Below, in pieces: positions 4,329 through 36,727 of a DNA stretch of 64,000 nt. Position 1 is the stretch's first letter. Each line of letters starts with the position of its first letter. The notes under the pieces were generated by a model. The model was not told the DNA's origin. It ran no database searches and was given only the letters and a program-made list of their open reading frames with translations. This DNA comes from Candidatus Doudnabacteria bacterium (GTDB taxonomy: Bacteria > Patescibacteriota > Doudnabacteria > UBA920): NCBI GenBank assembly GCA_003151625.1, contig PLYC01000010.1, forward strand, positions 133,515 through 197,514, written 5' to 3'. A program made the translations under genes and the position numbers.

Positions 4329-4331
4329 AAT

Positions 4332-7184: not shown

Positions 7185-7535
7185 TTATCTGTTTATTAAA
7201 AGCACGCTAAGTATTTTCATCACCTCTTCTAGCAAAGAATCAACTTTGGTAAAATTTAAATTTTTTCCCAATGGAAGTTTTTTTGCAATTTCAATTTGAG
7301 TTTCAAGCCCCGCTCCCGAACCAAACGCTATGGATAAAAAATGATAGAATTCTTTATCGGAGCCGCGTCGTCTCCCCTCAGCAATATTTGAAGGCATTGA
7401 TACTCCGCATCGTCTCGACTGAGAAACCAATCCGTACAACTCACTCCTAGGGTAATTCTCTGTAAGTAGATAAACTTCTAATACCAACTCCATCGATTTC
7501 TGCCAGACTATTAAATTTTTATAATTGGGCTGCAT
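7185..7535 (-). CDS. Four-helix-bundle protein (TIGR02436 / 23S rRNA IVS protein family)
   Basis: Motifs NLIVWQKSMELVLEVY, SQSRRCGVSMPSNIAEGRRRGSDKEFYHFLSIAFGS and ETQIEIAKKL. Confidence 0.75.
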   Translation of the reverse strand: MQPNYKNLIVWQKSMELVLEVYLLTENYPRSELYGLVSQSRRCGVSMPSNIAEGRRRGSDKEFYHFLSIAFGSGAGLETQIEIAKKLPLGKNLNFTKVDSLLEEVMKILSVLLINR

Positions 7536-7582
7536 GTGTTTGTTTGGCTGAACGCTACCAGCTAAATGCTAACTGCTAGCAA

Positions 7583-8200
7583 CTACTCTAAGCTTCTAAT
7601 TACACCGACCACTTTACCCTGCACCATCCATTCTTCTTTGGGGTAAATATTTTTGTAGTCCGGGTTTTCCGCTTTTAGATAGGCGCGATTCTTTATTTGA
7701 ATAAAGCGTTTAACCGTGGCTTCGTCGTGGAGCAAGGCTACGACAATGTCATTATTTTTTACATCGTGGGTTGGGCGGACAATAACTAAATCTCCCTCAA
7801 AAATTCCGGCGTTTATCATACTGTCGCCTCTGACTTTTAACAAAAAAACGTCACGGCGGCTTTTAATTAATGTTTGCGGCAAATTAATCCATTCCTCTAT
7901 ATTTTCTTCGGCTAGATGAGGAGTACCGGCCTGAATATTCCCGAGCAGAGGAACTGCCACCAAACCTTTTTGCAAACTTTGGCCAAGGGAATTTAAAACT
8001 TCTATTCCTCTGGCCTTGCCCGTAGTTTTAACAAACCCCTGATCTTCCAAAGCGTTTAACAGCTTTGCAACACCATTTTTGGATTTAACCTTTAAAAAGG
8101 TTGCCATTTCGGAAATACTTGGCGGCAAACTATGATTTCTAATTTGCTCTATAATAAAATGCAACAACTCCTTTTGTCGGTCTGTAATTTCTTTTGGCAT
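7583..8200 (-). CDS. lexA: LexA repressor (S24 peptidase)
   Basis: N-terminal wHTH LTDRQKELLHFI, cleavage-site region VPLLGNIQAG, catalytic GDSM and a downstream Lys. Confidence 0.9.
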   Translation of the reverse strand: MPKEITDRQKELLHFIIEQIRNHSLPPSISEMATFLKVKSKNGVAKLLNALEDQGFVKTTGKARGIEVLNSLGQSLQKGLVAVPLLGNIQAGTPHLAEENIEEWINLPQTLIKSRRDVFLLKVRGDSMINAGIFEGDLVIVRPTHDVKNNDIVVALLHDEATVKRFIQIKNRAYLKAENPDYKNIYPKEEWMVQGKVVGVIRSLE

Positions 8201-19598: not shown

Positions 19599-19673
19599 TG
19601 GGGTGTCGCCAAGCGGTAAGGCAGGGGCCTTTGAAGCCCCCATTCGTAGGTCCGAATCCTACCACCCCAGCCA
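19599..19673 (+). tRNA. tRNA-Gln (anticodon UUG)
   Basis: Manual cloverleaf: acceptor TGGGGTG/CACCCCA (U1-A72 as in E. coli tRNA-Gln), D-arm GCC-AAGCGGTAA-GGC, anticodon arm GGGGC-CTTTGAA-GCCCC, T-arm GTAGG-TCCGAAT-CCTAC, G73, CCA. Confidence 0.8.
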
Positions 19674-19909
19674 TTAGTAAATAATTTATAAAGCATTGGC
19701 GTCGCTCGTCTCGGCTTCGCCGAGCCGAAGTCGGACCAAGCAGCCCGTCTCGGCCGAGGCTATCCGAATTAGCCGAGCCGAGGTCGGATAAGGCAGGGGC
19801 CTTTGAAGCCCCCATTCGTAGGTTCGAATCCTACCGCCCCAGCCAACAACTCTCTCATAATACCGGAGACCGAAGAGTATCAGCGTTTCAAGAGACAGTC
19901 AATGATTTT

Positions 19910-20649: not shown

Positions 20650-21141
20650 ATGGAAGCTACTCAAAATTCATTACCCGAAATTGCCATTAGGGAATATAGA
20701 CTCGATGACTCTTTACAAATAAAAGAGTGTTTGCTTGTATTGCAGGATTTTGTTCACCTTTTGGAGCCAAAAATTGTTGCCACCGGCTCAAAGGTTTTTG
20801 ACAGTTATTTTGAATATTTGATAAATGAAATAAATAAAAAGGATGGTAAAATTTTTGTTGTTGAATCAAGGAATGCAATTGTTGGTTTTGTTGGATTATT
20901 TGTTACACAGGAAGAATGGGAATCGGAAAAATCTTTGTACATTTCCGATCTTGTCGTGTTAGAAAAATACCGTGGTCTAGGCTTAGGAACTAAACTTTTG
21001 GAATATGTTGAAGATTATGCAAAACAACAGGGTGCAAAATTCATAAAAATCGGGGCGCTCGAAAAAAATCACGGCGCACTAGATTTGTATCGCAAAATGG
21101 GTTTTGCTGATTATTTGGTTGTCTTGCTAAAAACGCTATAA
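20650..21141 (+). CDS. GNAT-family N-acetyltransferase
   Basis: Motif LVVLEKYRGLGLGTKLLEYVEDYAKQQGAKFIKIGALEKN is the GNAT A/B motif. Confidence 0.8.
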   Translation: MEATQNSLPEIAIREYRLDDSLQIKECLLVLQDFVHLLEPKIVATGSKVFDSYFEYLINEINKKDGKIFVVESRNAIVGFVGLFVTQEEWESEKSLYISDLVVLEKYRGLGLGTKLLEYVEDYAKQQGAKFIKIGALEKNHGALDLYRKMGFADYLVVLLKTL

Positions 21142-21918: not shown

Positions 21919-22914
21919 ATGAACAAAATATATCCGGAAAAATTAAAAGTTGGAGATGAAGTTAGAATTATAGCGCCTTCAAGATCGCTCGGCATTATCT
22001 CAAATAATTTAAGAGAGATAGCCAACCGCCGATTTAGGGATTTAGGGCTTAAAGTCAGTTTTGGCAAGCATGTTGAAGAAAAAGACGAGCTTGATTCTTC
22101 CGGTATAGAATCTCGCATTGAGGACTTGCATGAAGCGTTTGCCGACAAAAACATCAAAGCAATTTTTACCGTCATTGGCGGGTATAATTCCAACCAGTTG
22201 TTGAAGCATATTGATTGGCAATTGATAAAAAATAACCCAAAAATACTTTGTGGCTATTCTGATATTACAATCTTAAATAATGCTATTTACGCCAAGACCG
22301 GATTGATAAGCTACTACGGCCCGCATTATTCCACTTTCGGGCAGGAAAAGCACTTTGACTATACTTTGGATTACTGTAAAAAATGTTTGTTTTCTGACGA
22401 ACCGTTTGAAATTAAACCCAGCGAAAATTGGAGTGATGATTTTTGGTTTAAAGATCAAAACAACCGCACCTTCATTCCTAACGAAGGGTGGTTGGCAGTA
22501 AACGAAGGCGAAGCTGAGGGAACTATCCTCGGAGGTAATCTTTGCACTTTTAATTTGATACAAGGCACGGAATTTTTTCCAGATTTGAACGACAGTATTT
22601 TATGTTTGGAAGACGATGATTTACCAAAAGAAAATTCCGCTGTGGAATTTGACCGCAATCTGCAATCCTTAATTCAGCAACCAAATTTTGAAAAAGTCCA
22701 AGGTTTGGTCATTGGCAGATTCCAAAAAGGCAGCCAAATTACGAACGAAAAGATAAAACAAATTATAAAATCAAAAAAAGAGCTGGCTAATATGCCCATA
22801 ATTGCCAATGTCGATTTTGGCCACACCGATCCCAAAATAACCCTTCCAATTGGCGGAGAAATTCAGATTAAAGCGCATTTTCAGAATTCCCAAATAAACA
22901 TAACTAAACATTAA
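21919..22914 (+). CDS. LD-carboxypeptidase (peptidase S66; LdcA/MccF-like)
   Basis: VRIIAPSRSL, ILCGYSDITILNNAIY (Ser nucleophile) and a C-terminal His/Glu region. Confidence 0.8.
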   Translation: MNKIYPEKLKVGDEVRIIAPSRSLGIISNNLREIANRRFRDLGLKVSFGKHVEEKDELDSSGIESRIEDLHEAFADKNIKAIFTVIGGYNSNQLLKHIDWQLIKNNPKILCGYSDITILNNAIYAKTGLISYYGPHYSTFGQEKHFDYTLDYCKKCLFSDEPFEIKPSENWSDDFWFKDQNNRTFIPNEGWLAVNEGEAEGTILGGNLCTFNLIQGTEFFPDLNDSILCLEDDDLPKENSAVEFDRNLQSLIQQPNFEKVQGLVIGRFQKGSQITNEKIKQIIKSKKELANMPIIANVDFGHTDPKITLPIGGEIQIKAHFQNSQINITKH

Positions 22915-23055
22915 AGTTACCATTCAAGCAAAAAAATAAGGGCATGGACAAAAAATCCAAGCTCTTTTTTATCTAATGTTATTCCAAGTCTTTAAAATAT
23001 AGGACAATAGGGGTCGACGAGAGCCGGCCCCTATTTGGTTTGAGCGCCATTGCGC

Positions 23056-23508
23056 TCAGTTGATGGTGACGGGACGCAGCTCGAGGGGTTCCTGTTCGTA
23101 GGGAACGAAGAACGCTTTGGATCCCGCCACAGCTACGCCCTTTCCGGAAGTCCCGTCCGCCAAGGCGAGACCGATGTTGCAGCGGCAGCCTAATCCTGGA
23201 GTGGTGATGAGTTCGTGATACTGCTGAAAGGCCTCGCTCCACCTCTCCAGGACGATATGGTGACCGTGGTCGTCAGTGTAGACATTGACACCCTCTTCGT
23301 GCAGGAGGCGGAGAACGGCGTTCTCCACAACCTTGCCCGAGAAGGGCTTGTCCGCATTGATTACCAGGTGAAACAGGCGGCCGGTCATCCGGGCGCCGTT
23401 CATGATGATGGTTTCTGGGTTGCCGACAACGAACTTCGTATCCGGTTGGCCGGATCGTAAATGCATTGCCAGCGTTTCCGCAATCTGCCCTTGACGTTCT
23501 GTGAACAT
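23056..23508 (-). CDS. Hypothetical 150-aa protein of the high-GC island
   Basis: High-GC codon usage continuous with the island. No confident family; motifs VVGNPE and TDDHGHH noted. Confidence 0.45.
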   Translation of the reverse strand: MFTERQGQIAETLAMHLRSGQPDTKFVVGNPETIIMNGARMTGRLFHLVINADKPFSGKVVENAVLRLLHEEGVNVYTDDHGHHIVLERWSEAFQQYHELITTPGLGCRCNIGLALADGTSGKGVAVAGSKAFFVPYEQEPLELRPVTIN

Positions 23509-23544
23509 ACACGCTCCTTGGTTGGTTGTCGGTAACTTTCGGTA

Positions 23545-23754
23545 TTAGGCCGAGTGAACGCAGGTGCCGTCGGAATTGTAGGCATAAACTTCAATGCCGA
23601 CGCCGCGGTTGGTGTGAGCGATGTCATCGATCTCCCGTTGGCTTAACGGTGCGTTGTAGTCGCCAATAAAGAAATCTTCGCCATGCTCGTGCCCGATGAA
23701 ACGGATCTTACCATCCGGAGCCTTGGGCTCCGTATCTGACTTTCGGAATAGCAT
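23545..23754 (-). CDS. Hypothetical 69-aa protein of the high-GC island
   Basis: ORF upstream of the 150-aa gene in the same transcription unit. An AT-rich promoter spacer precedes it. Confidence 0.35.
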   Translation of the reverse strand: MLFRKSDTEPKAPDGKIRFIGHEHGEDFFIGDYNAPLSQREIDDIAHTNRGVGIEVYAYNSDGTCVHSA

Positions 23755-23904
23755 GATTCCTCCCCCTTTGCAAATTTATATCGCACGTTTCAAAACATAT
23801 TTATAAACTCTGTGAACCGTAAAATAATGAAAATACTACTTACTGAGAAAATGATCTTGGTTTGAAATAATTATATACCTATTCAATAAATAAAAACAAC
23901 CTGA

Positions 23905-23945
23905 AAAAATCAACCCGGCGCGTCCTCCTTTGCGCCGGGCGTGGT
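23905..23945 (-). terminator. Terminator after HisRS-like paralog 1 (CCCGGCGC-loop-GCGCCGGG + T-run on the minus strand)
   Basis: Seen directly. Confidence 0.6.
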
Positions 23946-23959
23946 TGAAGAACAACAAC

Positions 23960-25285
23960 TTAAACCTCCTGGAGCACCTGCCCCAGGGCATTCCGGACAT
24001 CGGCCTCGAAAGCGGAGCGGCATTCGAGGGCGTGGGTGAGGGTGGCTTCTTTGCCGCTGACGCAGACCACCAACTGGCATCCGCGGAGTTTGGCCTGTTC
24101 TACCGCTCCCGCGGAGGAAAGCGGGTCGTAGCTCAGGTCAACGTTGATGCCAGCATTGCGAAGCTGCTGGGCGAATCGGAAAGCCATGGCTGTACTGTCG
24201 TTATTGCCGCAGTACGCTACCAGGACTTTATCCGGAAGGACAAGCTCGGATTTGAGCATGTCCAATTCCTTCATGACTGCAAGGATGCGGTCGAGGCCGA
24301 AGGCCATGCCGACCGCCGGTTCAGGCGGAGCGCCGAAAGCGCCCACCAGATTGTCGAATCGGCCACCGCCGAGTACCGCGCCGATTGGCACGCCGGGAAT
24401 CACTCCTTCCAGAATGAAACCGGTGTAATAGTCGGCGCCGCGAGCCAACGTAAGGTCGATTCTGACGTGAGATAGCACTTCGTCGGGCAGATAAGAGAAA
24501 ATCTCCCGGAGCTCAGCGATGCCGGTTAATCCGGCCGGCTGGTCGTGAAGATTGTCTTGAAGGTGTTGAAGCATGTCTTCGAGCGAGCCGGAAATAGCGA
24601 TGACGCCCATAATGCTTTCTATCAGGGCGCTGCCAACCCGGCGGCGTTTCAGGTCTTCGCGAATCCCTTCCAGGCCTGCCTTGGTCACCTTGTCGGCGTA
24701 ATCCATAGCGCGTTGCACCTTGAGGATGCCGTCTTTGCCGGTGATACCGGCGCGGGCAGCAATGGCCTGGATGATCATGCGATGATTGACGCGGATGACG
24801 AACTGCCGGAAACCGAGGTCGCAAAGGCCGCGGTATGCTACGGAGATAATATCAGCGTCAGCCAGAAGGCTGGAAGCGCCAATGATGTCCCCATCGCATT
24901 GCATAAACTCGCGGAAGTGCCCCTTGTCCGGTTTGTCATCGCGAAACACATAGCCGAACTGATACCGCTTGTAGGGGCGGGGCAGGTCGGGGTGCATGCT
25001 GGCTACGCGAGCCAGCGGTACCGTTAGGTCGTAGCGGAGAACGAGACGGTGTTTCTTGTTGTCTCCCAGGCGGAAGATGAGCTTCTCGCCCTCGCCGTGG
25101 TGGCCGTCAAATACGACCTCGTTCTCGATGGTGGGGGTATCGTGGGGAGTGAAACCGCTCTTCTCGTAGACAGAACGGAGAATACGGATAACGTAATCAC
25201 GCACCCGCATTCCAAGCCCCAGCTTGTCAGTAGTGCCCGGAGGGACGGCGTTCTTAAGCCGAGACCGGGTCTGTGGATGACCCAT
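23960..25285 (-). CDS. Divergent class-II HisRS-like paralog 1 (full length with anticodon-binding-like domain)
   Basis: Altered motif 2 RDDKPDKGHFREFMQCDGDIIG, histidine-binding ARGADYYTG, motif 3 LGGGRFDNL and a C-terminal alpha/beta ABD-like region. Confidence 0.8.
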   Translation of the reverse strand: MGHPQTRSRLKNAVPPGTTDKLGLGMRVRDYVIRILRSVYEKSGFTPHDTPTIENEVVFDGHHGEGEKLIFRLGDNKKHRLVLRYDLTVPLARVASMHPDLPRPYKRYQFGYVFRDDKPDKGHFREFMQCDGDIIGASSLLADADIISVAYRGLCDLGFRQFVIRVNHRMIIQAIAARAGITGKDGILKVQRAMDYADKVTKAGLEGIREDLKRRRVGSALIESIMGVIAISGSLEDMLQHLQDNLHDQPAGLTGIAELREIFSYLPDEVLSHVRIDLTLARGADYYTGFILEGVIPGVPIGAVLGGGRFDNLVGAFGAPPEPAVGMAFGLDRILAVMKELDMLKSELVLPDKVLVAYCGNNDSTAMAFRFAQQLRNAGINVDLSYDPLSSAGAVEQAKLRGCQLVVCVSGKEATLTHALECRSAFEADVRNALGQVLQEV

Positions 25286-26621
25286 TGTTTGCGCTCTCCT
25301 TGGCGCGGATGAGGCTAATAGCCTCTTTGGTGCTCACGTTGCTGGTTTGTCCTGTGGACATATCCTTGAGGGAAACATAGCCGCCGGCGACTTCGTCGTC
25401 GCCGATCACGATGATGAAAGGAATTCCCAGCCGGCTGGCGTAGGTTACCTTTTTTTTCAGCTTGGCATCATCGAAGTATACGGCCGTAGGTATGCCGCCT
25501 TCGCGCAACTCGGTAGCTGCCTGCAAAGGAACGCGGAGATCGGAAGTTTGCGGAATGACCAGCACTATAGCGGGCGTTGCGGATTTGGGAGTAATGATGC
25601 CCGCTTCGCGAAGCTGGTAAAACAGCCTGGTCAGGCCAATGGAAATTCCGACGCCGGGCAACTGTTTGTTGGTATAGTACCCAGCCAGGTCGTCGTAACG
25701 TCCGCCCGAACAGACACTGCCGATGCCGGGGTAGTCATTCAGCACCGTTTCGTACACGGTGCCCGTGTAATAGTCGAGGCCGCGGGCGATTGTCAGGTCA
25801 ATAGCGTAATTCTGCCCGGGAACCCCAAGCGCCGAGACGTAGGAAATTACCTTCTCCAATTCGTCGACGCCGGTATGGAAAGTGCCGTTGCTGATCTGCA
25901 TCTGCTTGAGCTGGGAGAGGATGGCGGCCGTGTCGCCTGTCAATCCGATGAACGCAAGAACTTCGCGCGCCGCATTGGGTGGCGCTCCTAGACCGGCCAA
26001 CTCCTGCTGAACTGCTTCCTGCCCGGCTTTCTCCAGCCTGTCGACCGAACGGAGGATGTCCGCGGCCTGGCTGGCAAGTCCGAGCGATTCGAAGAAGCCG
26101 TTCAGAATCTTGCGATTGTTGATTTTGATGGTGAAGCGGGAAAAGCCGAGCGCCGTAAAGGTTGCGTAGATGACGCTGGGAATTTCCGCGTCGTTTAGCA
26201 AACTCAAAGCGCCGTCGCCGATGATGTCGATGTCGCACTGGTAGAATTCCCGGAAACGGCCTCTCTGCGGCCGCTCTCCGCGGAACACTTTTCCGATGTG
26301 GTAGCGCCGGAAAGGAAACGCGAGGTCCGGATAGTGCTGCGCTACATAGCGGGCCAACGGAACCGTGAGATCAAACCTCAAGGCCAAATCGCTGTCGCCC
26401 TTGGTGAAGCGGTAAATCTGCTTTTCGGTCTCACCGCCCGCCTTGGCCAAAAGCACTTCGGCCAATTCGATGACGGGGGTATCTAGCGGAATGAACCCGA
26501 ACCGTTCATAGCTTTTCTGGATTACTCCCAACATGCCGTTGAACAGCATTTGGTCTGCCGGGAGCAGTTCCATAAAGCCGGAAAGGATCCGGGGGGTGAC
26601 TTTACTTGGATTGTTGTTCAT
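25254..26621 (-). CDS. Class-II HisRS-like paralog 2 (more canonical)
   Basis: Motif 2 FRGERPQRGRFREFYQCDIDIIG, ARGLDYYTG, CSGGRYDDL and ABD region AIVLVIP...IPFIIVIGDDE. Its 3' end overlaps paralog 1 by 32 nt. Confidence 0.8.
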   Translation of the reverse strand: MNNNPSKVTPRILSGFMELLPADQMLFNGMLGVIQKSYERFGFIPLDTPVIELAEVLLAKAGGETEKQIYRFTKGDSDLALRFDLTVPLARYVAQHYPDLAFPFRRYHIGKVFRGERPQRGRFREFYQCDIDIIGDGALSLLNDAEIPSVIYATFTALGFSRFTIKINNRKILNGFFESLGLASQAADILRSVDRLEKAGQEAVQQELAGLGAPPNAAREVLAFIGLTGDTAAILSQLKQMQISNGTFHTGVDELEKVISYVSALGVPGQNYAIDLTIARGLDYYTGTVYETVLNDYPGIGSVCSGGRYDDLAGYYTNKQLPGVGISIGLTRLFYQLREAGIITPKSATPAIVLVIPQTSDLRVPLQAATELREGGIPTAVYFDDAKLKKKVTYASRLGIPFIIVIGDDEVAGGYVSLKDMSTGQTSNVSTKEAISLIRAKESANNGSSTDPVSA

Positions 26622-26875
26622 AATATTTGATCAATCCTCCTGCATGGTACAAACTACGGAATGACTGGCTCCATAATTCTGCCAATCGATGGTAAAGAAC
26701 AAACAAGCTCATCCTTATTGCACGGATAAACTTATCGTATTACTATAAATCAATTTAGCTTATATTGTCAAGGAGATTGGGTTTGGCCAGAGAAGCCCCT
26801 GACAAAATTTTTTAACTTGATTTTATTGGATAAATAATATATATAAAAGTCGAGTGAACTGTAAAAAAAGATATC

Positions 26876-26920
26876 CGGGCAGCTCCTAAGAGGAACTGCC
26901 CGGAAGATAAAACCTTTGCC
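26876..26920 (-). terminator. Terminator after the MIO-lyase gene (CCGGGCAG...CTGCCCGG + T7 on the minus strand)
   Basis: Seen directly. Confidence 0.6.
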
Positions 26921-26933
26921 AAACGGCTCGGGT

Positions 26934-28589
26934 CTAAGTGGTCAACGCGTTGCAGGCTGACTGCATCAGACTTCCGTCTGCCAGCATGCCCTCGACTGCG
27001 TCCAACTCGGCCTTGAGATACCGGTCATCAAACCAGGTCTGGTGGCCTTTTGCCGTTTCCTTCTGGAATACGCCGCGGATGTGGCCGTAAGCCTCGCTCG
27101 TTCCGAGCCCGAGCTGCTGGAGGTTTTCCGGCAGCAAATGCTGAGTGAGGGTGATCCCTTGCGACGCCATGAACAGTTCGGCGGCAAGCACGCGACGGAT
27201 GATCGGCAGCATGGAGCGAACTTTGAGAGCGCTGTTCATTCCCATGCTCACCCAGTCTTCCTGGTCTGCCGAGGTCGTGATCGAATGAGTCGAGCAGGGA
27301 TTGGCCAGAAGCGCAATCTGATTCACCAAGGAGGCAACCCCATATTGCACGATCATCAGGCCGGTATTGGCCGTATTGGGACCGGCAAGATCCGCAGGCA
27401 AACCGTAGCTTAACCTGGGAGTAGTCAGAGCGAAACCTCGCCGGTCACTGGCGCCGGCAAGCGGCGTCAGGGCTATTGCGAGGTAATCCAGCGGCGCCGC
27501 CAAAGGCTGACCGTGAAAATTGCCGCCTGAAATGGCTATGTATTGCGCGCCGTTCTCATCATCCTCGAACACCAGAGGATTGTCGGTTGCCGAGTTGAGT
27601 TCGACTTCGAGAATCGATTCCAGATGAGAAAGTGCTTGGTATGCCGCCGCATGAATCTGGGGCGCACAGCGGAACGAGTAAGCGTCCTGAACGCGGGGAA
27701 CCTGCTTGCCGTGGCTAAACTTCTTCTGTTCGTCCGGAAAGGCTACGGATCTGGCTTCTTCCGTAATTCTCCTGGATCCTTCGGTAAACTTCCTGATGCG
27801 CGCCGCGGAATGAACCTGACCGGGTAATGGCCTGGCTTCATGGATGCGGGCATCGAAAGCGTTCTGTTCTCCGCGAATAGCCTCTAAAGACAAGGCCGTA
27901 GCGAGGTCGGCGGTTTCCAAGAGAATCCAGCCGTCCACTACCGCAAGACACGCAATTGCCGCAATGAAGTTGGCGCCGTTTGTCAGTGCCATGGCTTCTT
28001 TGGCCGCAAGCGTGAGGGGTTTGAGGCCGTGGTTTTCAAGAACTGTTCTGGCCGGTTGAATTTCGCCCGCCACGAACATTTGACCTTCCTCAAGGCCGAT
28101 TATGCCCGCGGACATGTGAGCCAAGGGAATTAAATCTCCCGAGGCGCCCACCGATCCGAACTCAGGGACTACCGGGGTAAGCCCCAAATTCAGGCAATCG
28201 CGGAGCCTTTCAATCAGGCAAGGTCGCACGCCGGAGTGACCCTTCAAAAAGTTGTTCAGCCGAACAAGCATGGCTGCTCGGGTGACTTCGGGTGAAAGCG
28301 GGTTCCCATAGCCGCAGCAATGGGCCGGGATATAACGCATCTGGTAATCGGACAGTTCGTCCGACGGCAACACTTGGTTCTTGCGGGAGCCACAGCCGGT
28401 ATTGACACCGTACATGATGTCTCCACGGATAGCGGCGGCTTCGAGTCCTTGACGGAAACGTTCGATTTTCGCAAACGTCTCGGGGTTGATCTGAACCTCG
28501 TGATGATGTCTGGCCACGGCTATAACCTGTTCAGTGGTTAAGCTGTGACCGTCTACCTCCACGATTCTCTGCGTAAGCATAGATTTCAC
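26934..28589 (-). CDS. MIO-dependent aromatic amino-acid ammonia-lyase/aminomutase family protein (HAL/PAL-like)
   Basis: Ala-Ser-Gly MIO triad in GSVGASGDLIPLAHM, plus YGVNTGCG and a selectivity-region A-H (IPAHCCGYG) resembling the HAL S-H. 551 aa. Confidence 0.85.
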   Translation of the reverse strand: MKSMLTQRIVEVDGHSLTTEQVIAVARHHHEVQINPETFAKIERFRQGLEAAAIRGDIMYGVNTGCGSRKNQVLPSDELSDYQMRYIPAHCCGYGNPLSPEVTRAAMLVRLNNFLKGHSGVRPCLIERLRDCLNLGLTPVVPEFGSVGASGDLIPLAHMSAGIIGLEEGQMFVAGEIQPARTVLENHGLKPLTLAAKEAMALTNGANFIAAIACLAVVDGWILLETADLATALSLEAIRGEQNAFDARIHEARPLPGQVHSAARIRKFTEGSRRITEEARSVAFPDEQKKFSHGKQVPRVQDAYSFRCAPQIHAAAYQALSHLESILEVELNSATDNPLVFEDDENGAQYIAISGGNFHGQPLAAPLDYLAIALTPLAGASDRRGFALTTPRLSYGLPADLAGPNTANTGLMIVQYGVASLVNQIALLANPCSTHSITTSADQEDWVSMGMNSALKVRSMLPIIRRVLAAELFMASQGITLTQHLLPENLQQLGLGTSEAYGHIRGVFQKETAKGHQTWFDDRYLKAELDAVEGMLADGSLMQSACNALTT

Positions 28590-28774
28590 TCCTAAACCGA
28601 GATTTCAACTGTACTGAGACTTAGAACAGACAACCCAAAAATAGGTGCGTTGATGTTATTTTTCCTCCAAATTCAAGGCAAAACAAACAACTCAACCCTT
28701 TGAGCGGTCTGGTCTGTGCTATATGCATATACCTTTTAACACCCTTCTGTCAAGGGCTTAAATAAAAGAGTTTT

Positions 28775-29374
28775 TTATCTACGCTTACCGACTTCGTCCG
28801 TAATATTTTTAAAAGAGATATCTTTTTCTGCCAGTAAAACGAACAGGTGGTAAATTAAATCCACAGTTTCCTCAATTAATCTGGGTTTGGTTTGTTTTTG
28901 CGCTGCGTGTACAACTTCGAGTGCTTCCTCGGCCACTTTTAGGGAAATTTTGTCCAAACCAGCTTTGAATAAAGAGGCTGTATAGGATTTTTTTGGCATC
29001 TTTAATTTTCGCTCCTGGATTACGCTGAACAACTCCAATAATTTGTTGGGGTCAAAATTTTCTTTAAAACAGGAATAAGCACCCGTATGGCACGTCGGAC
29101 CTACCGGTTTGGCTTTAATTAGTATTGCGTCGTTATCACAGTCTAACTTTATATCAACAAGGTTTAAGATGTTCTTGCTGGTTTCGCCTTTCATCCAGAG
29201 CCGCTGTTTGCTTCGGCTATAAAACCAAACTTTTTTTGTCTTTAAAGTTTTGGCGAAAGATTCCTTATTCATATAACCCAGCATCAAAACAGCGGACGTG
29301 TCGGCATCTTGAATGACGGCCGGTACCAGACCTTGACTTTTTGTCCAATTTATTTTTTTGATTAAATTTTTCAT
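28775..29374 (-). CDS. hisIE: Bifunctional phosphoribosyl-AMP cyclohydrolase / phosphoribosyl-ATP pyrophosphatase
   Basis: N-terminal HisI ([18 protein letters not shown]) and C-terminal HisE helices. Confidence 0.85.
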
Positions 29375-30855
29375 AAGCGTATTGGTATGTTATTAGTTGA
29401 TAAATAATTTTTAACCTGGCTGACGCTAAATTGTCCATAATGGAACAAACTTGCTACCAATGCCGCGTCTGCCTTGCCCTCGGTAAAAGCCAATTTTAAA
29501 TCTTCCAAAGATCCGGCGCCGCCTGATGCGATAACAGGGATTTTTACCGCTTCCGAAACTTTTTTCAAAAGCTCTAAATCATAACCTGATTTTGTGCCGT
29601 CCTTATCCATAGAGGTCAATAAAATTTCTCCCGCTCCTCTTTTTTCAGCTTCTTTGGCCCAGTCGATTGCGTTTAATGAAGTTTCATCGCGGCCGCCCTT
29701 TAGAAATACTTTATATACGCCATCCTTCTTTTTTGCGTCAATTGCTACCACCACGCATTGCCGGCCAAAAGCAAGCGCTGCTTCGGAAATAAATTCGGGG
29801 TTAAGCACGGCCGTGGTATTAATGGAAATTTTGTCAGCGCCTAATTGCAATAATTTGCGAATATCATCAACGGTCTTAATTCCGCCCCCAACGGTGAAAG
29901 GTATAAAGACCTCTTTGGCCACCTGGGCTACCATGTCAAATAACGTCTGCCGATTCTCATGCGACGCGGTAATGTCAAGAAAGACCAGCTCGTCAGCGCC
30001 TTCTTCAGAATACCTGCGACCCAAGGCTACCGGGTCGCCCGCATCCCTCAGGTTTACAAAAGATACGCCCTTAACCACCCTGCCGTCTTTAACGTCCAAG
30101 CAGGGAATAATTCGTTTGGTTAAGTTTGATACAGGTGTTTGAAAATTTAAAGCCTCAGCCAACGTTAGCCTATTTTCATACAAAGCTTTGCCCAAAATGG
30201 CGCCAAAGGCACCCAATGTATTTATTTTTTTCAGAGATTTTAAATCGGAAATTCCTCCGGACGCTATAACATTAAACCCCAAATTTATCAGTTCTTTTAA
30301 AACTATAAAATTTGGCTCGGTTAGGCTGCCGTCTTTTTCCACGTCCGTAAACAAGATTTCGGTTATCCCAAGGGTTTTAAGTTCTTTGGCAAAATCCAAA
30401 TAATTTTTATCAACGGTTTCCTGCCACCCTTTTATCGCAATTTTGCCTTTTTTAATTTCCAGCGCTACTACTATTCGCTTGCTGCCGAACTCTTTAATTA
30501 AAGATGATAATAGGCCAAAATCCGTTAATGCTTTGGTGCCTAAAACAGCACGCCGCACGCCGGAATTTAAATATTTTTGCGCGGTACTTATATCGCGGAT
30601 CCCTCCGCCGACTTCTATGGGAATTTTGACAGCCTTACAAATTTTGGTAATCAGTTCCTGGTTGACCGGCACTCCTGTTTTAGCCGCATCCAAATCAATA
30701 ATATGAAGCATGGCCGCCCCTTGCCGCTCAAAGTCTTGGGCCACGCCTAAAGGATCGGAAGAATAAATTTTTTTCGTGGAAAATTCTCCCTTAGTTAACC
30801 TTACACATTTGCCGTCAATAATGTCTATCGCGGGAATAATTAACATAAATCGCAA
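29371..30855 (-). CDS. hisAF: Fused HisA-HisF protein (ProFAR isomerase + IGP synthase cyclase subunit)
   Basis: The first ~240 aa are HisA-like ([27 protein letters not shown]). The last ~250 aa are HisF-like ([44 protein letters not shown]). Continuous 494-aa ORF. Confidence 0.85.
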
Positions 30856-31430
30856 AAGTTAGATAATAATTTCATTCCCCATTGTCCGGATTTTTCCGGA
30901 TGGAATTGAGTAGCGTAAAAGTTATCTTTCTGTGCGATGGCCGCAAAATCAACATCATAAGCGGTTTGACCGATAACGTATTTTAAGTCCGTTGCCAAAT
31001 AATACGAGTGCACAAAGTAAAAGAAACTACCTGTCGGAATTTCTGTCGTAAGCTTGGATTCTTTAATTAGCTCAACTTTATTCCAGCCCATATGCGGGAC
31101 TTTTAAGTCTGTTTGGAATCTTACTACCCGGCCGGGAATTATAGATAAACATTCGGTGTTATCTTCTTCCGAAAATTCCGCCATCAACTGCATGCCTAGA
31201 CATATCCCTAAAGTAGGAACTTTAAGTTTAGGTAAAACTTTGGCAAAGCCGCTTCCTATTAGTTTCTCCATAGCGCTTCCCGCCGCGCCAACCCCGGGCA
31301 AAATAACCTTATCAAAAGCAGCCAAGCTTTCCGGTTTGTTTACAATCTCAAAAGACTTGCCAAGCGAAGTTAACGCGTTGGCTACGCTTTGTAAGTTACT
31401 CGCGCCATAATCTATAATCGCGATTTTCAT
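30840..31430 (-). CDS. hisH: Imidazole glycerol phosphate synthase glutaminase subunit
   Basis: [22 protein letters not shown] (catalytic Cys) and VHSYY. Confidence 0.9.
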
Positions 31431-32489
31431 TTATAATGACCCTTTCGTGGAAGGCAGTATATCCTTTTGCCGGAAGTCCTTATCAACCGCCATACGCAAA
31501 GCCTTGGCAAAAGCTTTGAAGATTGCCTCTATTTTGTGATGTTCATTCCGGCTATATTTAACATTAATGTGAATATTGGCCTTCATTGTTTCGGCAACTG
31601 AACGGAAAAAGTGTTCTACCATTTCCGTTGGCAGGTCTCCGACCTTCTCTCTTTTAAAATCACAGTTAAACACTAAATACGGTCTGCCGCCCAAGTCTAT
31701 CGCAACCTCCACAAGCGTATCGTCCATTGGCAATAAGAATCCATAACGTTTTATGCCTTTTCTTTCGCCCAATGCCTGTAATAGAGTCTGCCCCAATGTT
31801 AGCCCCACATCTTCTATTGTGTGGTGGTCATCTATCTGTAAATCGCCCTTGGCTTTAATTGTTAAATCAATCAGCGAGTGTTTGGAAAGCTGTTCCAGCA
31901 TGTGGTTGAAAAAATTGATTCCCGTATCAACGCTAAAATTCCCTTGTCCATCCAGATTGCACAAAATAAAAACTTCGGTTTCTTTTGTGCCGCGCTCCAA
32001 GCTTGCGATTCTCGGAAATATTGAATTGGTTTGCATGCCAAAAAACTTCACTCCGATATTTTTGGCAAATCCCGCATCGCTTTCCCTGTCTCCGACCATA
32101 AAAGATTTTTCAAAGTCTATAAGTTCTTTTTGCAAGAAACTTTTCAATAATCCGGCTTTCGGCTTCCTGCAATTGCATTTATCTTTAGCAAAATGAGGGC
32201 AGGTAAATATTCCGTAAAATTCTACCCCTTCCTTTTTTAGCAGTTTCAAAAAAGCATTTTGTACTATTTCAAAATCTTTTTTTGGAAAGGACATTGTACC
32301 CAGGCCGTCCTGATTGGAAACCATAACCAGTTTATAGTTTTGATTTGTCAGATTCTGTAGAACTAAAATTACCCCAGGCAAAATTTTAAGTTTGTCCAGG
32401 CTGTCTACCTGCTCGGTAACCGGCGGTTCAATAATTAGTGTGCCGTCCCTGTCCAAAAAGGCAATTTTTAACAGTTGTCCGGAATTCAT
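31431..32489 (-). CDS. hisB: Bifunctional histidinol-phosphatase / imidazoleglycerol-phosphate dehydratase
   Basis: N-terminal HAD motif FLDRDGTL. C-terminal IGPD motifs (DDHHTIED, RNEHHKIEA). Confidence 0.9.
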   Translation of the reverse strand: MNSGQLLKIAFLDRDGTLIIEPPVTEQVDSLDKLKILPGVILVLQNLTNQNYKLVMVSNQDGLGTMSFPKKDFEIVQNAFLKLLKKEGVEFYGIFTCPHFAKDKCNCRKPKAGLLKSFLQKELIDFEKSFMVGDRESDAGFAKNIGVKFFGMQTNSIFPRIASLERGTKETEVFILCNLDGQGNFSVDTGINFFNHMLEQLSKHSLIDLTIKAKGDLQIDDHHTIEDVGLTLGQTLLQALGERKGIKRYGFLLPMDDTLVEVAIDLGGRPYLVFNCDFKREKVGDLPTEMVEHFFRSVAETMKANIHINVKYSRNEHHKIEAIFKAFAKALRMAVDKDFRQKDILPSTKGSL

Positions 32490-33526
32490 ATAATTGATGA
32501 TAAATTTTTAATTAATAATTGATTTTGCTCCGGTGTGCCAATGGAAATCCTAATGCAGTTTTCGAGTTTGGGTTTGGAATTAAAATCTCTTACGATAATT
32601 CCAAAATCTTCGGCTAATTTTTTCGCTATCAGCGATGCGTTAGGATAACGAACCAGTAAAAAATTGGCTTCGCTGGGAAAAACTTTAAATCCTAATTTAG
32701 TTAATTCCAAAGCCAATTTTTCTCTTTCCCTGAGTATTAAGGTTTTAAATTCCAACATCTTTGGGTATTGCTGCAAGGCCTGTATAGCTATCTTGCTGGA
32801 AACACGGTTTAAATTATATGGCGGCTTAATTTTGTTTAAATATTCAATAGGAGCCTCCTGCGCTACGGCATAACCTACCCGAATACCGGCTAATCCCCAG
32901 GCTTTGGAAAAAGTTCTAAGTATAATCAAATTTTCCAAACTTGATATTTTGCCGATTAAAGACGGCTTTGAAGCAAACTCAACGTAAGCCTCATCAACCA
33001 CTACAATGCCGCGGAAATTGCCGCAAATCTTTTCCAATTCTTCCGGCTTAATTAAAGTTCCGGTAGGGTTGTTTGGGGAGCAACAAAAAATAATCTTTGT
33101 TTTGCTGTTTATTTGGGAAAGCAGGTTTGGAACATCCACTTGGAAATCTGAAGTCAAAGAAATATTTTTTACTGCCACCCCGGCAACTTCGGCCGCAACT
33201 TTGTACATCCCGTATGTGGGTTCCATTATTATAATTTCTTCGTCTGGCTCTACAAAAAGACGAATAAGCAAATCTATGGCCTCGTCCGAACCGTTACCCA
33301 CAAAAATGTTTTTTTCCGAAATTCCCAAAAATTTTCCCAATGCTTTGCGCAAATCAAGGGAGTAGGGATCGGGATAACGGTTAAGTTCGTTGTCGATTGA
33401 TTCGTTAATGACACTGCCAAGCGAGTTTTCGTTGGCGTCCATAAAGACGCCTTTTTGATAAAGGCTGCGGGCCGAACTATAAGGTTTAAAGCCTCTTAAA
33501 TTGGAACGTATTAAATCGGTAATCAT
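32486..33526 (-). CDS. hisC: Histidinol-phosphate aminotransferase
   Basis: Class-II aminotransferase with GSDEAIDLL and the PLP-Lys region TFSKAWGLAGIRVGY. Confidence 0.9.
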   Translation of the reverse strand: MITDLIRSNLRGFKPYSSARSLYQKGVFMDANENSLGSVINESIDNELNRYPDPYSLDLRKALGKFLGISEKNIFVGNGSDEAIDLLIRLFVEPDEEIIIMEPTYGMYKVAAEVAGVAVKNISLTSDFQVDVPNLLSQINSKTKIIFCCSPNNPTGTLIKPEELEKICGNFRGIVVVDEAYVEFASKPSLIGKISSLENLIILRTFSKAWGLAGIRVGYAVAQEAPIEYLNKIKPPYNLNRVSSKIAIQALQQYPKMLEFKTLILREREKLALELTKLGFKVFPSEANFLLVRYPNASLIAKKLAEDFGIIVRDFNSKPKLENCIRISIGTPEQNQLLIKNLSSII

Positions 33527-34818
33527 AAATTTTTCTTGAATCTTATACTTACGGCATTTTTGTGGGCATCAAGGCCTTCTTTTGCAGCCAGGACTTCAAC
33601 CGTGGTTCTTAAATTTTTAATTCCTTCTTTGGTGACTTGTTGAATTTGCATTTTCTTTCCAAAAGATTCTACGGAAAGCGCCGAGAACATTTTAGCATAA
33701 CCGGAGGTAGGCAAGGTGTGATTACTGCCTGTGGCGTAATCTCCCAAAGGCTCGCTGGAATAATTTCCCAAAAATACCGAACCCGCGTTGTTTATTCTTT
33801 TCAGTATGGCATTCTCGTTCTTACAAACTATTTCCAAGTGCTCGGGAGCATAATCGTTAATTAAATCACAAGCTTCCGTTATGGTTTTTGTGATAATAAT
33901 AAAGCTGTTTTTTAAAGACTGCCGCACAATCTGCAACCGGAAAAGTTGCTCGGCCTGTTTTAAAACTTGATCGTAAACCTGTTTTGCCAAAGTTTCGGAT
34001 AAAGTAACCAAAATCGCCTGAGAGTCTTCGCCGTGTTCTAACTGCGAAAGCAGATCCGCGGCAATCCAATCCGGGTCAGCGCTTTCGTCCGCTAAGGCTA
34101 AAACCTCGGAAGGGCCAGCCGGCATATCTATATCCACCTCTCCATATACCATCATTTTTGCAGTGGTAACGTATTGATTCCCGGGACCAAAAATTTTTGA
34201 TACTTTAGGTATGGACTCTGTACCGTAAGCCATGGCCGCAACAGCCTGTGCCCCGCCTACTTTAAAAATTTTTGATATACCGCACAAATCAGCTGCTATC
34301 AGTACCGCGCTTGGAACCTTTCCTTCTTTGTTCGGAGGCACGCAAAGCACAATTTCTTTACAACCGGCAATTTTTGCGGGAATGGCTAACATTAAAACCG
34401 TGGAAGGATAAGCCGCCTTTCCGCCGGGAATATAAAGGCCAACCTTTTCAATCGGGCGAAATTCCCGCCAGATTTGGACGCCTTTGGCGGTTGTGACTTT
34501 TTGTTCCTTAATTTGCACGTTGCTTTTGTGAAATTTTTCAATGTTAGTTTTAGCTACTTTTAGCGCCTTAACCAATTCCTTACTTTCTTGTTTATAAGCC
34601 GTAGCTATTTCTTGTTTAGAGACCGCTAGGACTTTTAAATCCGCCCCTTCAAATTTTTTAGTAAAAGCAAAAAGCGCTTTGTCTTTATTTTTTCGGACAT
34701 CGCCAATTATTTTACTTACTACCGCCTCTACATTTGTTTTTTTGCTTTGCCTTTCCCGGATCAAATTCAGTATAGTTTGAAAGGAATATTGCTTTGTAGA
34801 TATAATTTTCATAAACAT
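33523..34818 (-). CDS. hisD: Histidinol dehydrogenase
   Basis: Typical HisD length and motifs ([22 protein letters not shown]). Confidence 0.9.
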
Positions 34819-35438
34819 TAATTAATACCGCACTTGGATAAGAATTTTGCTTTGGCCTGCTTATTAATCGGGCTTTCGATTAATACGGCTTGGGATTCTA
34901 ATATCGTGAATAACGGCACCAAATTATGCGCTTTTAAAGTAGTGCCGGTTTGCACTATATCGCAAATAGCGTCTGCCAGGTTCAAATCTGGCGTTATTTC
35001 CACGGAACCGGAAATGGGAATTATGGCCGCCTCAAGCTTCTCTTTTTTTAAATAGTCGGTAAGCAGTTTTGGATAGGAAGTGGCGATTCTTTCTCCTTCC
35101 AAATCCTTGGAGGTTTTTATAACGGAGTCTGCCGGAGCCGCTATCATCAGCCTGCATTTGCCAAAATCAAACTTTTTTAATATTTTCGGTTCAAATTCTT
35201 TTTCCGCGAGGACATTTTGTCCCACAATGCCAAAATCCGCCACGCCCCGGCTCACGTATTCCGGAATATCATCGTCCCTAAGATATAATACATCAAGGTC
35301 AAAATTTTGACAGGGCAGAATTAGCGAATGCCCGTTTGGAGCAAAAGTCAGCCCGCAAGAAACAAGGAAGTCCATACTGCCCTGATTCAGCCGGCCGCTT
35401 TTTTGAACGGCAATTCTTAGTCTTTCCGGAGTTTTCAT
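34818..35438 (-). CDS. hisG: ATP phosphoribosyltransferase, short form
   Basis: 206 aa short HisG (LRIAVQKSGRL). Overlaps the upstream HisRS gene by ATGA. Confidence 0.9.
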   Translation of the reverse strand: MKTPERLRIAVQKSGRLNQGSMDFLVSCGLTFAPNGHSLILPCQNFDLDVLYLRDDDIPEYVSRGVADFGIVGQNVLAEKEFEPKILKKFDFGKCRLMIAAPADSVIKTSKDLEGERIATSYPKLLTDYLKKEKLEAAIIPISGSVEITPDLNLADAICDIVQTGTTLKAHNLVPLFTILESQAVLIESPINKQAKAKFLSKCGIN

Positions 35439-36727
35439 AATGAGCTATATCCTTTAAAGTAATTAATAATCTGGTCCTGCGGTATAGTTTTTTGCTTGCC
35501 GGTCTTCATCATTTTAATGGTTACCTCGCCGCGTTCCTTTTCGTCCGATCCGCACATAACAACAAAAGGTATGCTTTTTTTGTCCGCGTATTTTAATTGT
35601 TTCGCAATTTTGGCCGGTTCAAAATAAATTTCCGCTTTTAACCCAGCCGTCTGTATATCACCCAAAATTTTAAGTGAATCCGGCAAGGTGTCCGCGTCAA
35701 AATATGCTACTAATGCCTGCGAATTTAAGCTTATTTCGTCAAGCAGTTTAAGTTGTTCCATCGCTACAATAATACGGTCAAATCCAAAGGCAACGCCCAC
35801 CCCGCTGAATTTTTCAGGGCAAAAAAGTGAGCACAGGTCGTCATACCTGCCTCCGGCGCAAACGGCTCCAATGTCCACTTCCGGTATGTAAACTTCAAAA
35901 ATAACGCCGGTATAATAATCCAGACCCCGCGCCAGACTGGGATCAAAAACCAAAACTTCATCCGGAATTCCAAACCCCTTTGCAATTTTTAAAAACTCCT
36001 GGATTTCAGTAATGTTATATTTTTGAAATAAGTTTAATCTTTCGTTTGAACTGCCTTCTACGCACACTAATTCCAATAATTTTGAAACCTCGGAGTCAGA
36101 AGCTAAAGACTTAAGCTCCTGTTTGATTTCGGCAGGGCTTAACTTATCCATTTTATCCAATATCCTAATCATCCCTGCCTGATTCTCGGCCGGGATTTTT
36201 AGGTCGTTCAAAATACTGTTAATCAATCTGCGGCTGTTAAATTTAATTTTAAACTTGGAAAAGCCCAAGGTAGTAAAAACTTCGGCCATTACTTTGGCGA
36301 TTTCGGCTTCAGCCACCAGGCTCTGTGTGCCGATAATATCTATGTCGCACTGGTAAAATTCCCTATATCTGCCTTTTGCCGGCCTGTCAGCCCGCCAAAC
36401 TCTTCCAATCTGGTACCGCTTAAAAGGCATTGGTAAAGTTTTGTAGTTGGCGGCCACCACTCTGGCAAAGGGGACGGTTTGATCATAACGCAGGCAAATA
36501 TCTCTGTCGCCATTATCCTTAAAACGGTAAACTAGTTTGGATCCCTCTTCGCCATACTTGCCTAATATTGTTTCCGCGTATTCAATTGCCGGAGTTTCGA
36601 TGGCATCGTAGCCAAACTTTGTAAACACAGTTTTAATTTTTTCCAAAACATAATCTCTCTTTGCCATTTGTTCGGGCAAAAAGTCCCTTGTTCCCTGTAA
36701 TATTTTTGGTTCAATAAATTGGTTCAT
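35435..36727 (-). CDS. hisS: Histidyl-tRNA synthetase (catalytically intact), translationally coupled to short hisG; possible dual HisS/HisZ role
   Basis: Motif 2 WRADRPAKGRYREFYQCDIDIIG, ARGLDYYTG, motif 3 GGRYDDL and a complete anticodon-binding domain. Confidence 0.85.
   Translation of the reverse strand: MNQFIEPKILQGTRDFLPEQMAKRDYVLEKIKTVFTKFGYDAIETPAIEYAETILGKYGEEGSKLVYRFKDNGDRDICLRYDQTVPFARVVAANYKTLPMPFKRYQIGRVWRADRPAKGRYREFYQCDIDIIGTQSLVAEAEIAKVMAEVFTTLGFSKFKIKFNSRRLINSILNDLKIPAENQAGMIRILDKMDKLSPAEIKQELKSLASDSEVSKLLELVCVEGSSNERLNLFQKYNITEIQEFLKIAKGFGIPDEVLVFDPSLARGLDYYTGVIFEVYIPEVDIGAVCAGGRYDDLCSLFCPEKFSGVGVAFGFDRIIVAMEQLKLLDEISLNSQALVAYFDADTLPDSLKILGDIQTAGLKAEIYFEPAKIAKQLKYADKKSIPFVVMCGSDEKERGEVTIKMMKTGKQKTIPQDQIINYFKGYSSL

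Follow-up and report, generated by a model that had tools for sequence, protein, structure and literature searches.

What are two small proteins of no recognizable family doing at the end of a histidine-themed gene cluster? The question is raised by a 64,000-nucleotide stretch of a Candidatus Doudnabacteria genome (contig PLYC01000010.1 of assembly GCA_003151625.1, forward-strand positions 133,515 to 197,514; hereafter the window), within which lies a GC-rich block that we call the island. All on its minus strand, the island encodes an MIO enzyme of the histidine ammonia-lyase (HAL) type, two histidyl-tRNA synthetases (HisRS455 and HisRS441, named for their lengths) and two small proteins, the products of orf69 and orf150 (Table 1). 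A reading of the sequence alone had proposed the latter two as accessory subunits, or as a precursor or partner, of the HisRS-like enzymes. We show here that orf69 is a conserved component of the cluster, co-inherited with MIO, HisRS and His-racemase-like genes in a second lineage. Our preferred interpretation, advanced tentatively and with somewhat less than even confidence, is that orf69 serves the histidine cluster as a partner without catalytic activity and that orf150 is an addition specific to its lineage.

Window-related DNA was recovered from one metagenome-assembled genome (MAG) of a Ca. Doudnabacteria bacterium (JARLHZ010000034.1, locus L004; 96% identical to the window over 11 kb) and from several metagenome assemblies (L001/L002, L003 and L015), and a counterpart of the cluster is present in a separate Patescibacteria genome, GCA_964532425.1 (L006/L007). 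At least three architectures, V1 to V3, were distinguished (Table 1). V1 and V2 share about 92% identical DNA at their MIO and orf69/orf150 ends, the middle being replaced. The V2 middle includes two tRNA-His(GUG) genes that differ from each other, both with G-1:C73 and with CCA encoded; since they stand beside a HisRS gene, the V2 island brings a complete second His-tRNA charging system. In V3 the orf69 homologue is last, orf150 is absent and a single HisRS is encoded. Compared with the island lineage, the V3 proteins are 73% (MIO), 70% (orf69), 56% (CntK-like) and 47% (HisRS) identical. The genome that carries V3 has a GC content of about 53% throughout; its cluster therefore looks native and represents a plausible donor type for the 56% GC island.

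In three of the four variants of the cluster, a gene distantly resembling those of the histidine racemases CntK and HisR (39-59 bits on models NF033599 and NF052224, against cut-offs of 300 and 400) stands one or two genes upstream of orf69. The native copy (L006, 15297-16049) keeps the first catalytic Cys (FCGNAAR), which is Ser in the island copies (FSGNGAR; L001 6434-7198 and L015 8922-9689), and the second Cys is kept in island and native copies (ACGSG). The island copy may not be a two-base racemase.

In more distant Patescibacteria (L008, L009, L013, L014 and L022), whose MIO enzymes are 57-61% identical, the MIO gene is found within 0-4 genes of a HisRS gene, and this proximity extends over seven Patescibacteria contexts when L006/L007 and L021 are included. 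MIO and HisRS form a recurrent association in the phylum, which orf69 joins in the nearest clade; orf150 is limited to the island lineage. The sequence-only reading had proposed looking for co-occurrence with HisRS-like/MIO pairs in other genomes: orf69 does recur with MIO and HisRS in a second lineage, and orf150 does not. As regards an accessory or partner role, this supports the suggestion for orf69, whose 70% identical homologue ends the V3 cluster, but not for orf150, which is absent from V3 and from the distant neighbourhoods examined.

In the island, the MIO enzyme and the two HisRS were the only protein families matched in Pfam and NCBIfam. The MIO enzyme scores 488 and 472 bits against the HAL models of NCBIfam, under their cut-offs, and keeps the ASG motif as well as the His found at the 'SH' position of HAL. 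HisRS441, whose gene overlaps the end of the HisRS455 gene by 32 nt, retains the Arg residues of motifs 2 and 3 along with RGxDYY and GGRxD (Tyr to Phe), but its C-terminal, anticodon-binding part is degenerate. In NCBI the L004 copy is named HisZ; judged by its sequence, HisRS441 resembles an adenylating enzyme that is active but whose use of tRNA or substrate has changed, more than it resembles HisZ.

Sequence comparison of four natural variants (92-97% nucleotide identity) confirmed that orf69 and orf150 are real protein genes under purifying selection. Pairwise pN/pS ranged from 0.05 to 0.22 in orf69 and from 0.15 to 0.30 in orf150; an insertion of 3 nt among the orf150 variants keeps the reading frame, and the Shine-Dalgarno sequences are conserved. 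Both genes share the codon usage of the island: GC content at third codon positions is 0.64 for orf69 and 0.70 for orf150, compared with 0.64-0.70 for the three large island genes and 0.29-0.45 for eleven host genes, and the codon log-likelihood favours island over host by 0.16 and 0.26 per codon, respectively. It is because of these four features (low pN/pS, in-frame indel, conserved Shine-Dalgarno sequences and island codon usage) that we regard both genes as real. The spacer between them measures 36 nt in the window and 26 nt in the other variants, and the L004 copies are recorded in NCBI as hypothetical proteins (orf69, MDR3643211.1; orf150, MDR3643210.1); the proteins of the window itself are entered from an NCBI/ENA contig of 424,907 bp. 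The two open reading frames (ORFs) and the shared codon bias reported by the sequence-only reading therefore hold on the minus strand, with both motifs it had singled out, VVGNPE and TDDHGHH, in the orf150 product; and rather than being confined to this genome, conserved copies of both genes occur in several metagenomes.

The two proteins could be assigned to no known sequence family or system, and they are new in that sense only, not in that of a demonstrated new mechanism. Pfam, NCBIfam, PADLOC, PHROGs and PDB sequences yielded nothing usable for either, in agreement with the earlier failure to assign them to a family. The sole PADLOC match of orf150 was PDC-M02A (E 0.0076, 14 bits), and no Pfam family reached E<=10, ACT and HutP (the histidine-activated hut antiterminator of about 150 aa) included. 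A word-index search of 5.8 billion proteins returned one cluster apiece, at >=94% identity; its negatives are soft, as the 70% identical orf69 homologue was overlooked and found later through gene context. For orf150, an exhaustive phmmer search of 1.84 billion representatives returned its own fragment and one tetratricopeptide repeat (TPR) protein only, the latter rejected as a spurious, repeat-driven match. By these searches, orphan status is firm for orf150 and softer for orf69. No relatives were detected in the viral contigs and phage genomes searched, and the literature on MIO enzymes with HisRS, on β-histidine and on HAL of Patescibacteria offered nothing relevant.

AlphaFold2, run without an alignment, predicted for orf69 a compact ββαββ domain (pLDDT 80.3, pTM 0.66; β16-23, β26-34, α39-48, β54-59, β65-68) preceded by a disordered N-terminus, in which residues 1-7 have pLDDT <50 and the first strand begins at residue 16. 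Foldseek searches of PDB and BFVD with this model gave no match at E<=0.001. The best compact named match was the phage antitoxin Dmd (5i8j; probability 0.99, TM-score 0.59/0.63, RMSD 2.6 Å, 28% identity over 57 columns, Foldseek E 0.21), and many small uncharacterised phage proteins have a fold of this kind. Homology to Dmd was not supported: hhalign of the orf69 family alignment against seven Dmd sequences gave a probability of 1.25%, BLASTP an E value of 0.031 with 8/31 identities, and tblastn against 50,697 phage records nothing significant. The likeness suggested by the model would at most be one of fold, and does not amount to family membership. A β-grasp (ThiS/MoaD-like) carrier was also considered for orf69 and rejected; no such fold appeared among the 50 listed PDB matches, and the C-terminal GG is unconserved (GT in the window, GG in L007).

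The AlphaFold2 model of orf150, at pLDDT 44, was unusable as a structure. Its secondary-structure elements run in the order β45-52, α58-71, β76-78, β84-87, α91-98 and β110-116, and Foldseek matches from this model (PII-like, ACT, RRM, Cas2 and UreE) were all non-significant, as was a BLASTP match to the ACT region of E. coli SerA (E 0.34). The order of elements and these fold matches hint at a ferredoxin/ACT-like βαββαβ core.

Several close relatives keep no more than a remnant of orf150: its last 66-67 codons, the first 84 having been lost, are all that is left in at least five contigs (L005, L016-L019), along with both 3' hairpins and the downstream flank of the window. The remnants are fused behind the NUDIX gene of a NifU-FNR-NUDIX block, which is not in the 64-kb window; orf69 is absent from these contigs. 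Since the remnants occur in close relatives, full-length orf150 is dispensable.

The sequence-only reading had described the pair as a separate transcription unit with its own AT-rich promoter spacer. The spacer upstream of orf69 (23755-23959, 36% GC overall) contains a terminator-like hairpin that follows HisRS441 and, past it, an AT-rich segment (Table 1). A strict sigma-70 consensus scan of the spacer found no promoter on the minus strand; a relaxed scan found a candidate on that strand, with a perfect -10 (TATAAT, 23870-23875) 18 nt from a weak -35 (TTGTTT, 23894-23899). The AT-rich character of the spacer thus stands, whereas the promoter is a candidate seen by the relaxed scan alone. With its hairpin and 27% GC segment, a separate transcription unit is plausible in the window variant; in L001, L015 and L007, however, orf69 starts 18-75 nt past the upstream gene, and in these other variants and the native cluster the small genes look like the last of an operon. 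The two hairpins that had been noticed downstream are borne out both by folding and by natural variation: the 116-nt 3' region has a predicted energy of -32.9 kcal/mol (z = -3.95; 0/200 shuffles fold as well), and the stem of hairpin 2 carries pair-improving substitutions in L005/L016 and in L015. A canonical intrinsic terminator would include a T-run, which both hairpins lack. Past hairpin 2 the DNA diverges between genomes.

The two genes, putatively co-transcribed, occupy the distal end of a horizontally acquired island whose theme is histidine: it encodes an MIO enzyme of the HAL type with one or two HisRS, to which sister variants add two tRNA-His genes and a His-racemase-like gene. We propose that orf69 most likely binds a cluster enzyme or the ligand of such an enzyme, and MIO is the favoured partner because orf69 is conserved to a similar degree as MIO (70% versus 73%) and far above HisRS (47%). 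orf150 would be a lineage-specific ORFan added downstream of orf69, possibly a ligand-binding α/β domain. Several observations weigh against this proposal. There are only two independent lineages with orf69, and their gene order may reflect shared ancestry, not function. Both genes are absent from the distant MIO/HisRS neighbourhoods examined, and neither MIO nor HisRS therefore depends on orf69 in general. The hairpin and AT-rich spacer set the window pair apart from the enzymes. A conserved metal site in orf69 is weakened by variation at position 22 (H/Y/Q/R) and by H67Y in one variant, and the CxC of orf150, considered as a conserved site, varies in spacing and in its first Cys. Finally, large searches can miss relatives, as the word-index search did.

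The pair could instead be hitch-hiking ORFans, variable 3' cargo with no functional tie, orf69 being merely linked in the donor lineage. We find this rather doubtful. The 3' part of the island does vary (L001 has a 140-aa orphan that L015 lacks, and orf150 is missing from L006/L007), relatives of the cluster have mobility genes close by (a serine recombinase in L011 and an HTH/transposase-like gene in L021), and the distant neighbourhoods do without either gene; yet orf69 keeps its terminal place after the His-racemase-like gene in two lineages, with 70% identity when HisRS has fallen to 47%, and both genes are under purifying selection. Unlikely, in our view, is a toxin-antitoxin-like addiction or anti-defence pair at the island edge, in which orf69 would be the antitoxin or inhibitor and orf150 the toxin or partner, stabilising the transferred island with no relation to histidine. 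The arrangement suits a type II module, with the small gene first and the larger one 26-36 nt downstream on the same strand, and with an upstream region of its own and 3' hairpins at the border in the window variant; Dmd is the best compact named fold match, many small phage proteins are alike, and strains exist in which orf150 is stripped of its first 84 codons. The two genes, however, do not behave as a co-occurring unit: L006/L007 have orf69 but not orf150, and L005 and L016-L019 have the 3' end of orf150 but not orf69. Moreover, Pfam, NCBIfam and PADLOC gave no toxin-antitoxin or defence family match, Dmd homology is unsupported by any of the three comparisons made (hhalign, Foldseek and BLASTP), both proteins are acidic, and the families are extremely rare, unlike promiscuous toxin-antitoxin modules.

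Quite improbable is a third role for orf69, that of a substrate (ribosomal precursor, carrier or acceptor) modified by the HisRS-like/tRNA-His machinery with histidine or a histidine derivative from the MIO or racemase-like enzymes. The extra HisRS paralogue with intact catalytic motifs and a degenerate anticodon-binding domain, the dedicated tRNA-His genes and 331/350-aa orphan of the sister variants, and the analogy to modification of elongation factor P (EF-P) by an aminomutase and an aminoacyl-tRNA synthetase (aaRS) paralogue (EpmB/EpmA) would all accommodate it. Against it, the island has no maturase of ribosomally synthesized and post-translationally modified peptides (YcaO, Lan, radical-SAM/SPASM or PEARL) and no phosphopantetheinyl transferase; orf69 has no PP-binding match (PF00550) even at E<=10, and its predicted fold is β-rich, not four-helix; the L006/L007 cluster couples orf69 with a single HisRS; and nothing in the HAL-model scores or the motif check marks the MIO enzyme as a mutase. 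The precursor suggested by the sequence-only reading is accordingly unlikely: orf69 is too small, too uniformly conserved from end to end and too compactly folded in its model for a leader-core peptide. A more specific version, built on the EF-P analogy and to be regarded as a very long shot, makes orf69 a dedicated partner or acceptor in an aaRS-paralogue pathway, in which a histidine derivative (β-His, D-His or urocanate) from the HAL-type MIO or His-racemase-like enzyme would be moved onto orf69 itself or a target presented by it, through the action of the HisRS paralogue or of the HisRS/tRNA-His and 331/350-aa orphan of the sister variants. Such a pathway would, if true, be the equivalent for histidine of EF-P β-lysylation, disseminated horizontally among bacteria of the candidate phyla radiation (CPR). 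As for the idea that these are unexpressed chance ORFs in GC-rich DNA, it could draw on the want of a known family for either, but it is next to negligible given mostly synonymous substitutions, the in-frame indel, conserved Shine-Dalgarno sequences, the 70% identical orf69 homologue and the confident orf69 fold.

The island, about 5.7 kb long with about 56% GC, lies in a Ca. Doudnabacteria-like genome of about 40% GC; stretches of the window between 23001 and 29000 have 48-59% GC against a background of about 36-45%. It follows hisIE, the last gene of a complete host his operon, whose bona fide hisS (430 aa, 404 bits) adjoins a short-form hisG. Amino-acid biosynthesis is usually missing in CPR bacteria. 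That a complete his operon is found here, when the closest relative of the genome bears the label Ca. Doudnabacteria, means either that the lineage is unusual or that the MAG label merits a check. In the spacer between hisIE and the MIO gene, a sigma-70-like promoter on the minus strand (28726-28753; TTGACA, 16 nt, TATATG) suggests that the island has its own promoter. At the same site L004 has a 427-bp insertion (4326-4753) with a 114-aa ORF, which the window is without, and L001 an AT-rich orphan gene of 357 aa.

Neither direct nor inverted terminal repeats were found to bracket the island, and an Rfam scan of 22800-29000 detected no riboswitch, T-box or other RNA. Elsewhere in the window, about 100 nt downstream of tRNA-Gln (19599-19673), a partial tRNA-like Rfam match on the plus strand (19776-19834; 35.5 bits, model positions 9-63), where ARAGORN makes no tRNA call, may be a tRNA remnant. 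Among relatives, a serine recombinase gene stands directly upstream of the MIO gene in L011 (3075-4274) and a helix-turn-helix (HTH)/transposase-like gene between the MIO and TrpR-like genes in L021 (2328-3626); both would fit a mobile cluster. GNAT and peptidase genes (S66, M15 and AstE/AspA-like) are often near MIO/HisRS in the seven contexts. Their company could reflect histidine salvage or, by analogy with MccE/MccF, aminoacyl-adenylate detoxification.

Table 1 Features of the island, its surroundings and its relatives.
Feature	Locus	Position	Strand	Description
MIO enzyme, HAL type	window	26934-28589	minus	PF00221, 537 bits
HisRS455	window	25254-26621	minus	Island HisRS, 455 aa; hisS 391.6 bits, above cut-off
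HisRS441	window	23960-25285	minus	Divergent HisRS paralogue, 441 aa; hisS 283 bits, cut-off 286.75
Terminator-like hairpin after HisRS441	window	23904-23939	minus	CCCGGCGC-N10-GCGCCGGG, then U-tail TTGATTTTTT / UUGAUUUUUU; from fold and sequence
AT-rich spacer upstream of orf69	window	23755-23903	minus	27% GC; past the terminator-like hairpin
orf69 Shine-Dalgarno	window	23759-23766	minus	GGGGGAGG; 4 nt before ATG; kept in 4/4 variants
orf69	window	23545-23754	minus	69 aa, acidic, pI 5.1; ORF call
orf150 Shine-Dalgarno	window	23514-23519	minus	AAGGAG; conserved in variants
orf150	window	23056-23508	minus	150 aa, acidic, pI 5.9; ORF call
Hairpin 1	window	23042-23057	minus	GAGCGC-AAUG-GCGCUC; overlaps orf150 stop codon; kept in variants and remnants
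Hairpin 2	window	23006-23035	minus	AUAGGGGC.CGGC-UCUC-GUCG.ACCCCUAU; distal edge of GC-rich island
S66 LD-carboxypeptidase	window	21919-22914	convergent to island genes	Downstream of island
GNAT	window	20650-21141		Near island
Host his operon	window	28775-36727	minus	hisS-like (430 aa), short hisG, hisD, hisC, hisB, hisH, fused hisA/F, hisIE
Architecture V1	window, L004			MIO - HisRS455 - HisRS441 - orf69 - orf150
Architecture V2	L001, L015			MIO - HisRS472 - two tRNA-His(GUG) - 331/350-aa orphan - CntK/HisR-like - (140-aa orphan, L001 only) - orf69 - orf150
Architecture V3	L006/L007 (GCA_964532425.1)			MIO - TrpR-like - HisRS - GNAT - M15 dipeptidase - CntK/HisR-like - orf69
tRNA-His pair	L001; L015	4909-4984 and 5036-5113; ~7412-7624		Directly after HisRS, before 331/350-aa orphan
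orf150 remnant	L005; L016; L017-L019	1097-1297; 2661-2864; 		Own ATG; SD-like GGAAAGG

Small proteins annotated without function are abundant in Patescibacteria, and few are tied to a defined biochemical theme. orf69 is linked by conserved gene order to a HAL-type MIO and HisRS neighbourhood that recurs in the phylum, within a GC-rich island that moved into a genome already making its own histidine and equipped with its own HisRS. If orf69 is an enzyme partner, it would offer a handle on the role of the module, which might lie in the salvage or homeostasis of histidine, in a metabolite derived from it, in protection against an inhibitor of HisRS or in a modification that depends on tRNA. Should orf69 and orf150 be no more than cargo or an addiction module, the finding would be a minor one. 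More intriguing than the two small proteins is the MIO/HisRS/tRNA-His island around them.

Four known systems invite comparison with this arrangement. Dmd of phages T4 and RB69 is an antitoxin that inhibits the HEPN toxins RnlA and LsoA. It resembles orf69 in size (63 versus 69 aa), in the compact small β/α fold that the orf69 model suggests and in a faint local likeness of the first hairpin (KIRFIG versus KVTFIG), but it belongs to a phage setting rather than a bacterial island, and the fold is common to many unrelated small proteins; no RnlA/LsoA-like or HEPN protein was detected among the island and flanking proteins scanned with Pfam, PADLOC and NCBIfam. In EF-P β-lysylation, EpmA (PoxA) and EpmB (YjeK) combine a class II aaRS paralogue with an aminomutase. 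Here, too, an enzyme of an aminomutase-capable family is encoded beside a class II aaRS paralogue, with a small protein alongside; the island enzyme, however, is of the MIO type (perhaps a plain ammonia-lyase) and not radical-SAM, the paralogue is HisRS-like and not LysRS-like, orf69 is not EF-P, and the native V3 cluster has one HisRS only. Duplicate aaRS genes provide self-resistance or bypass in antibiotic clusters, as do the IleRS MupM and the ThrRS of borrelidin. Although no biosynthetic scaffold genes were identified around it, the island likewise adds one or two HisRS, and in variants tRNA-His, to a genome with a bona fide hisS of its own. Histidine racemase clusters, finally, are known with CntK in staphylopine biosynthesis and with HisR in Fusobacterium (PMC11602996, NF033599, NF052224). 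The island differs from them in having no CntL/CntM opine-synthesis genes, and its window variant is without a racemase-like gene, but in the other three variants it shares with these clusters a distant CntK/HisR-like gene, upstream of orf69.

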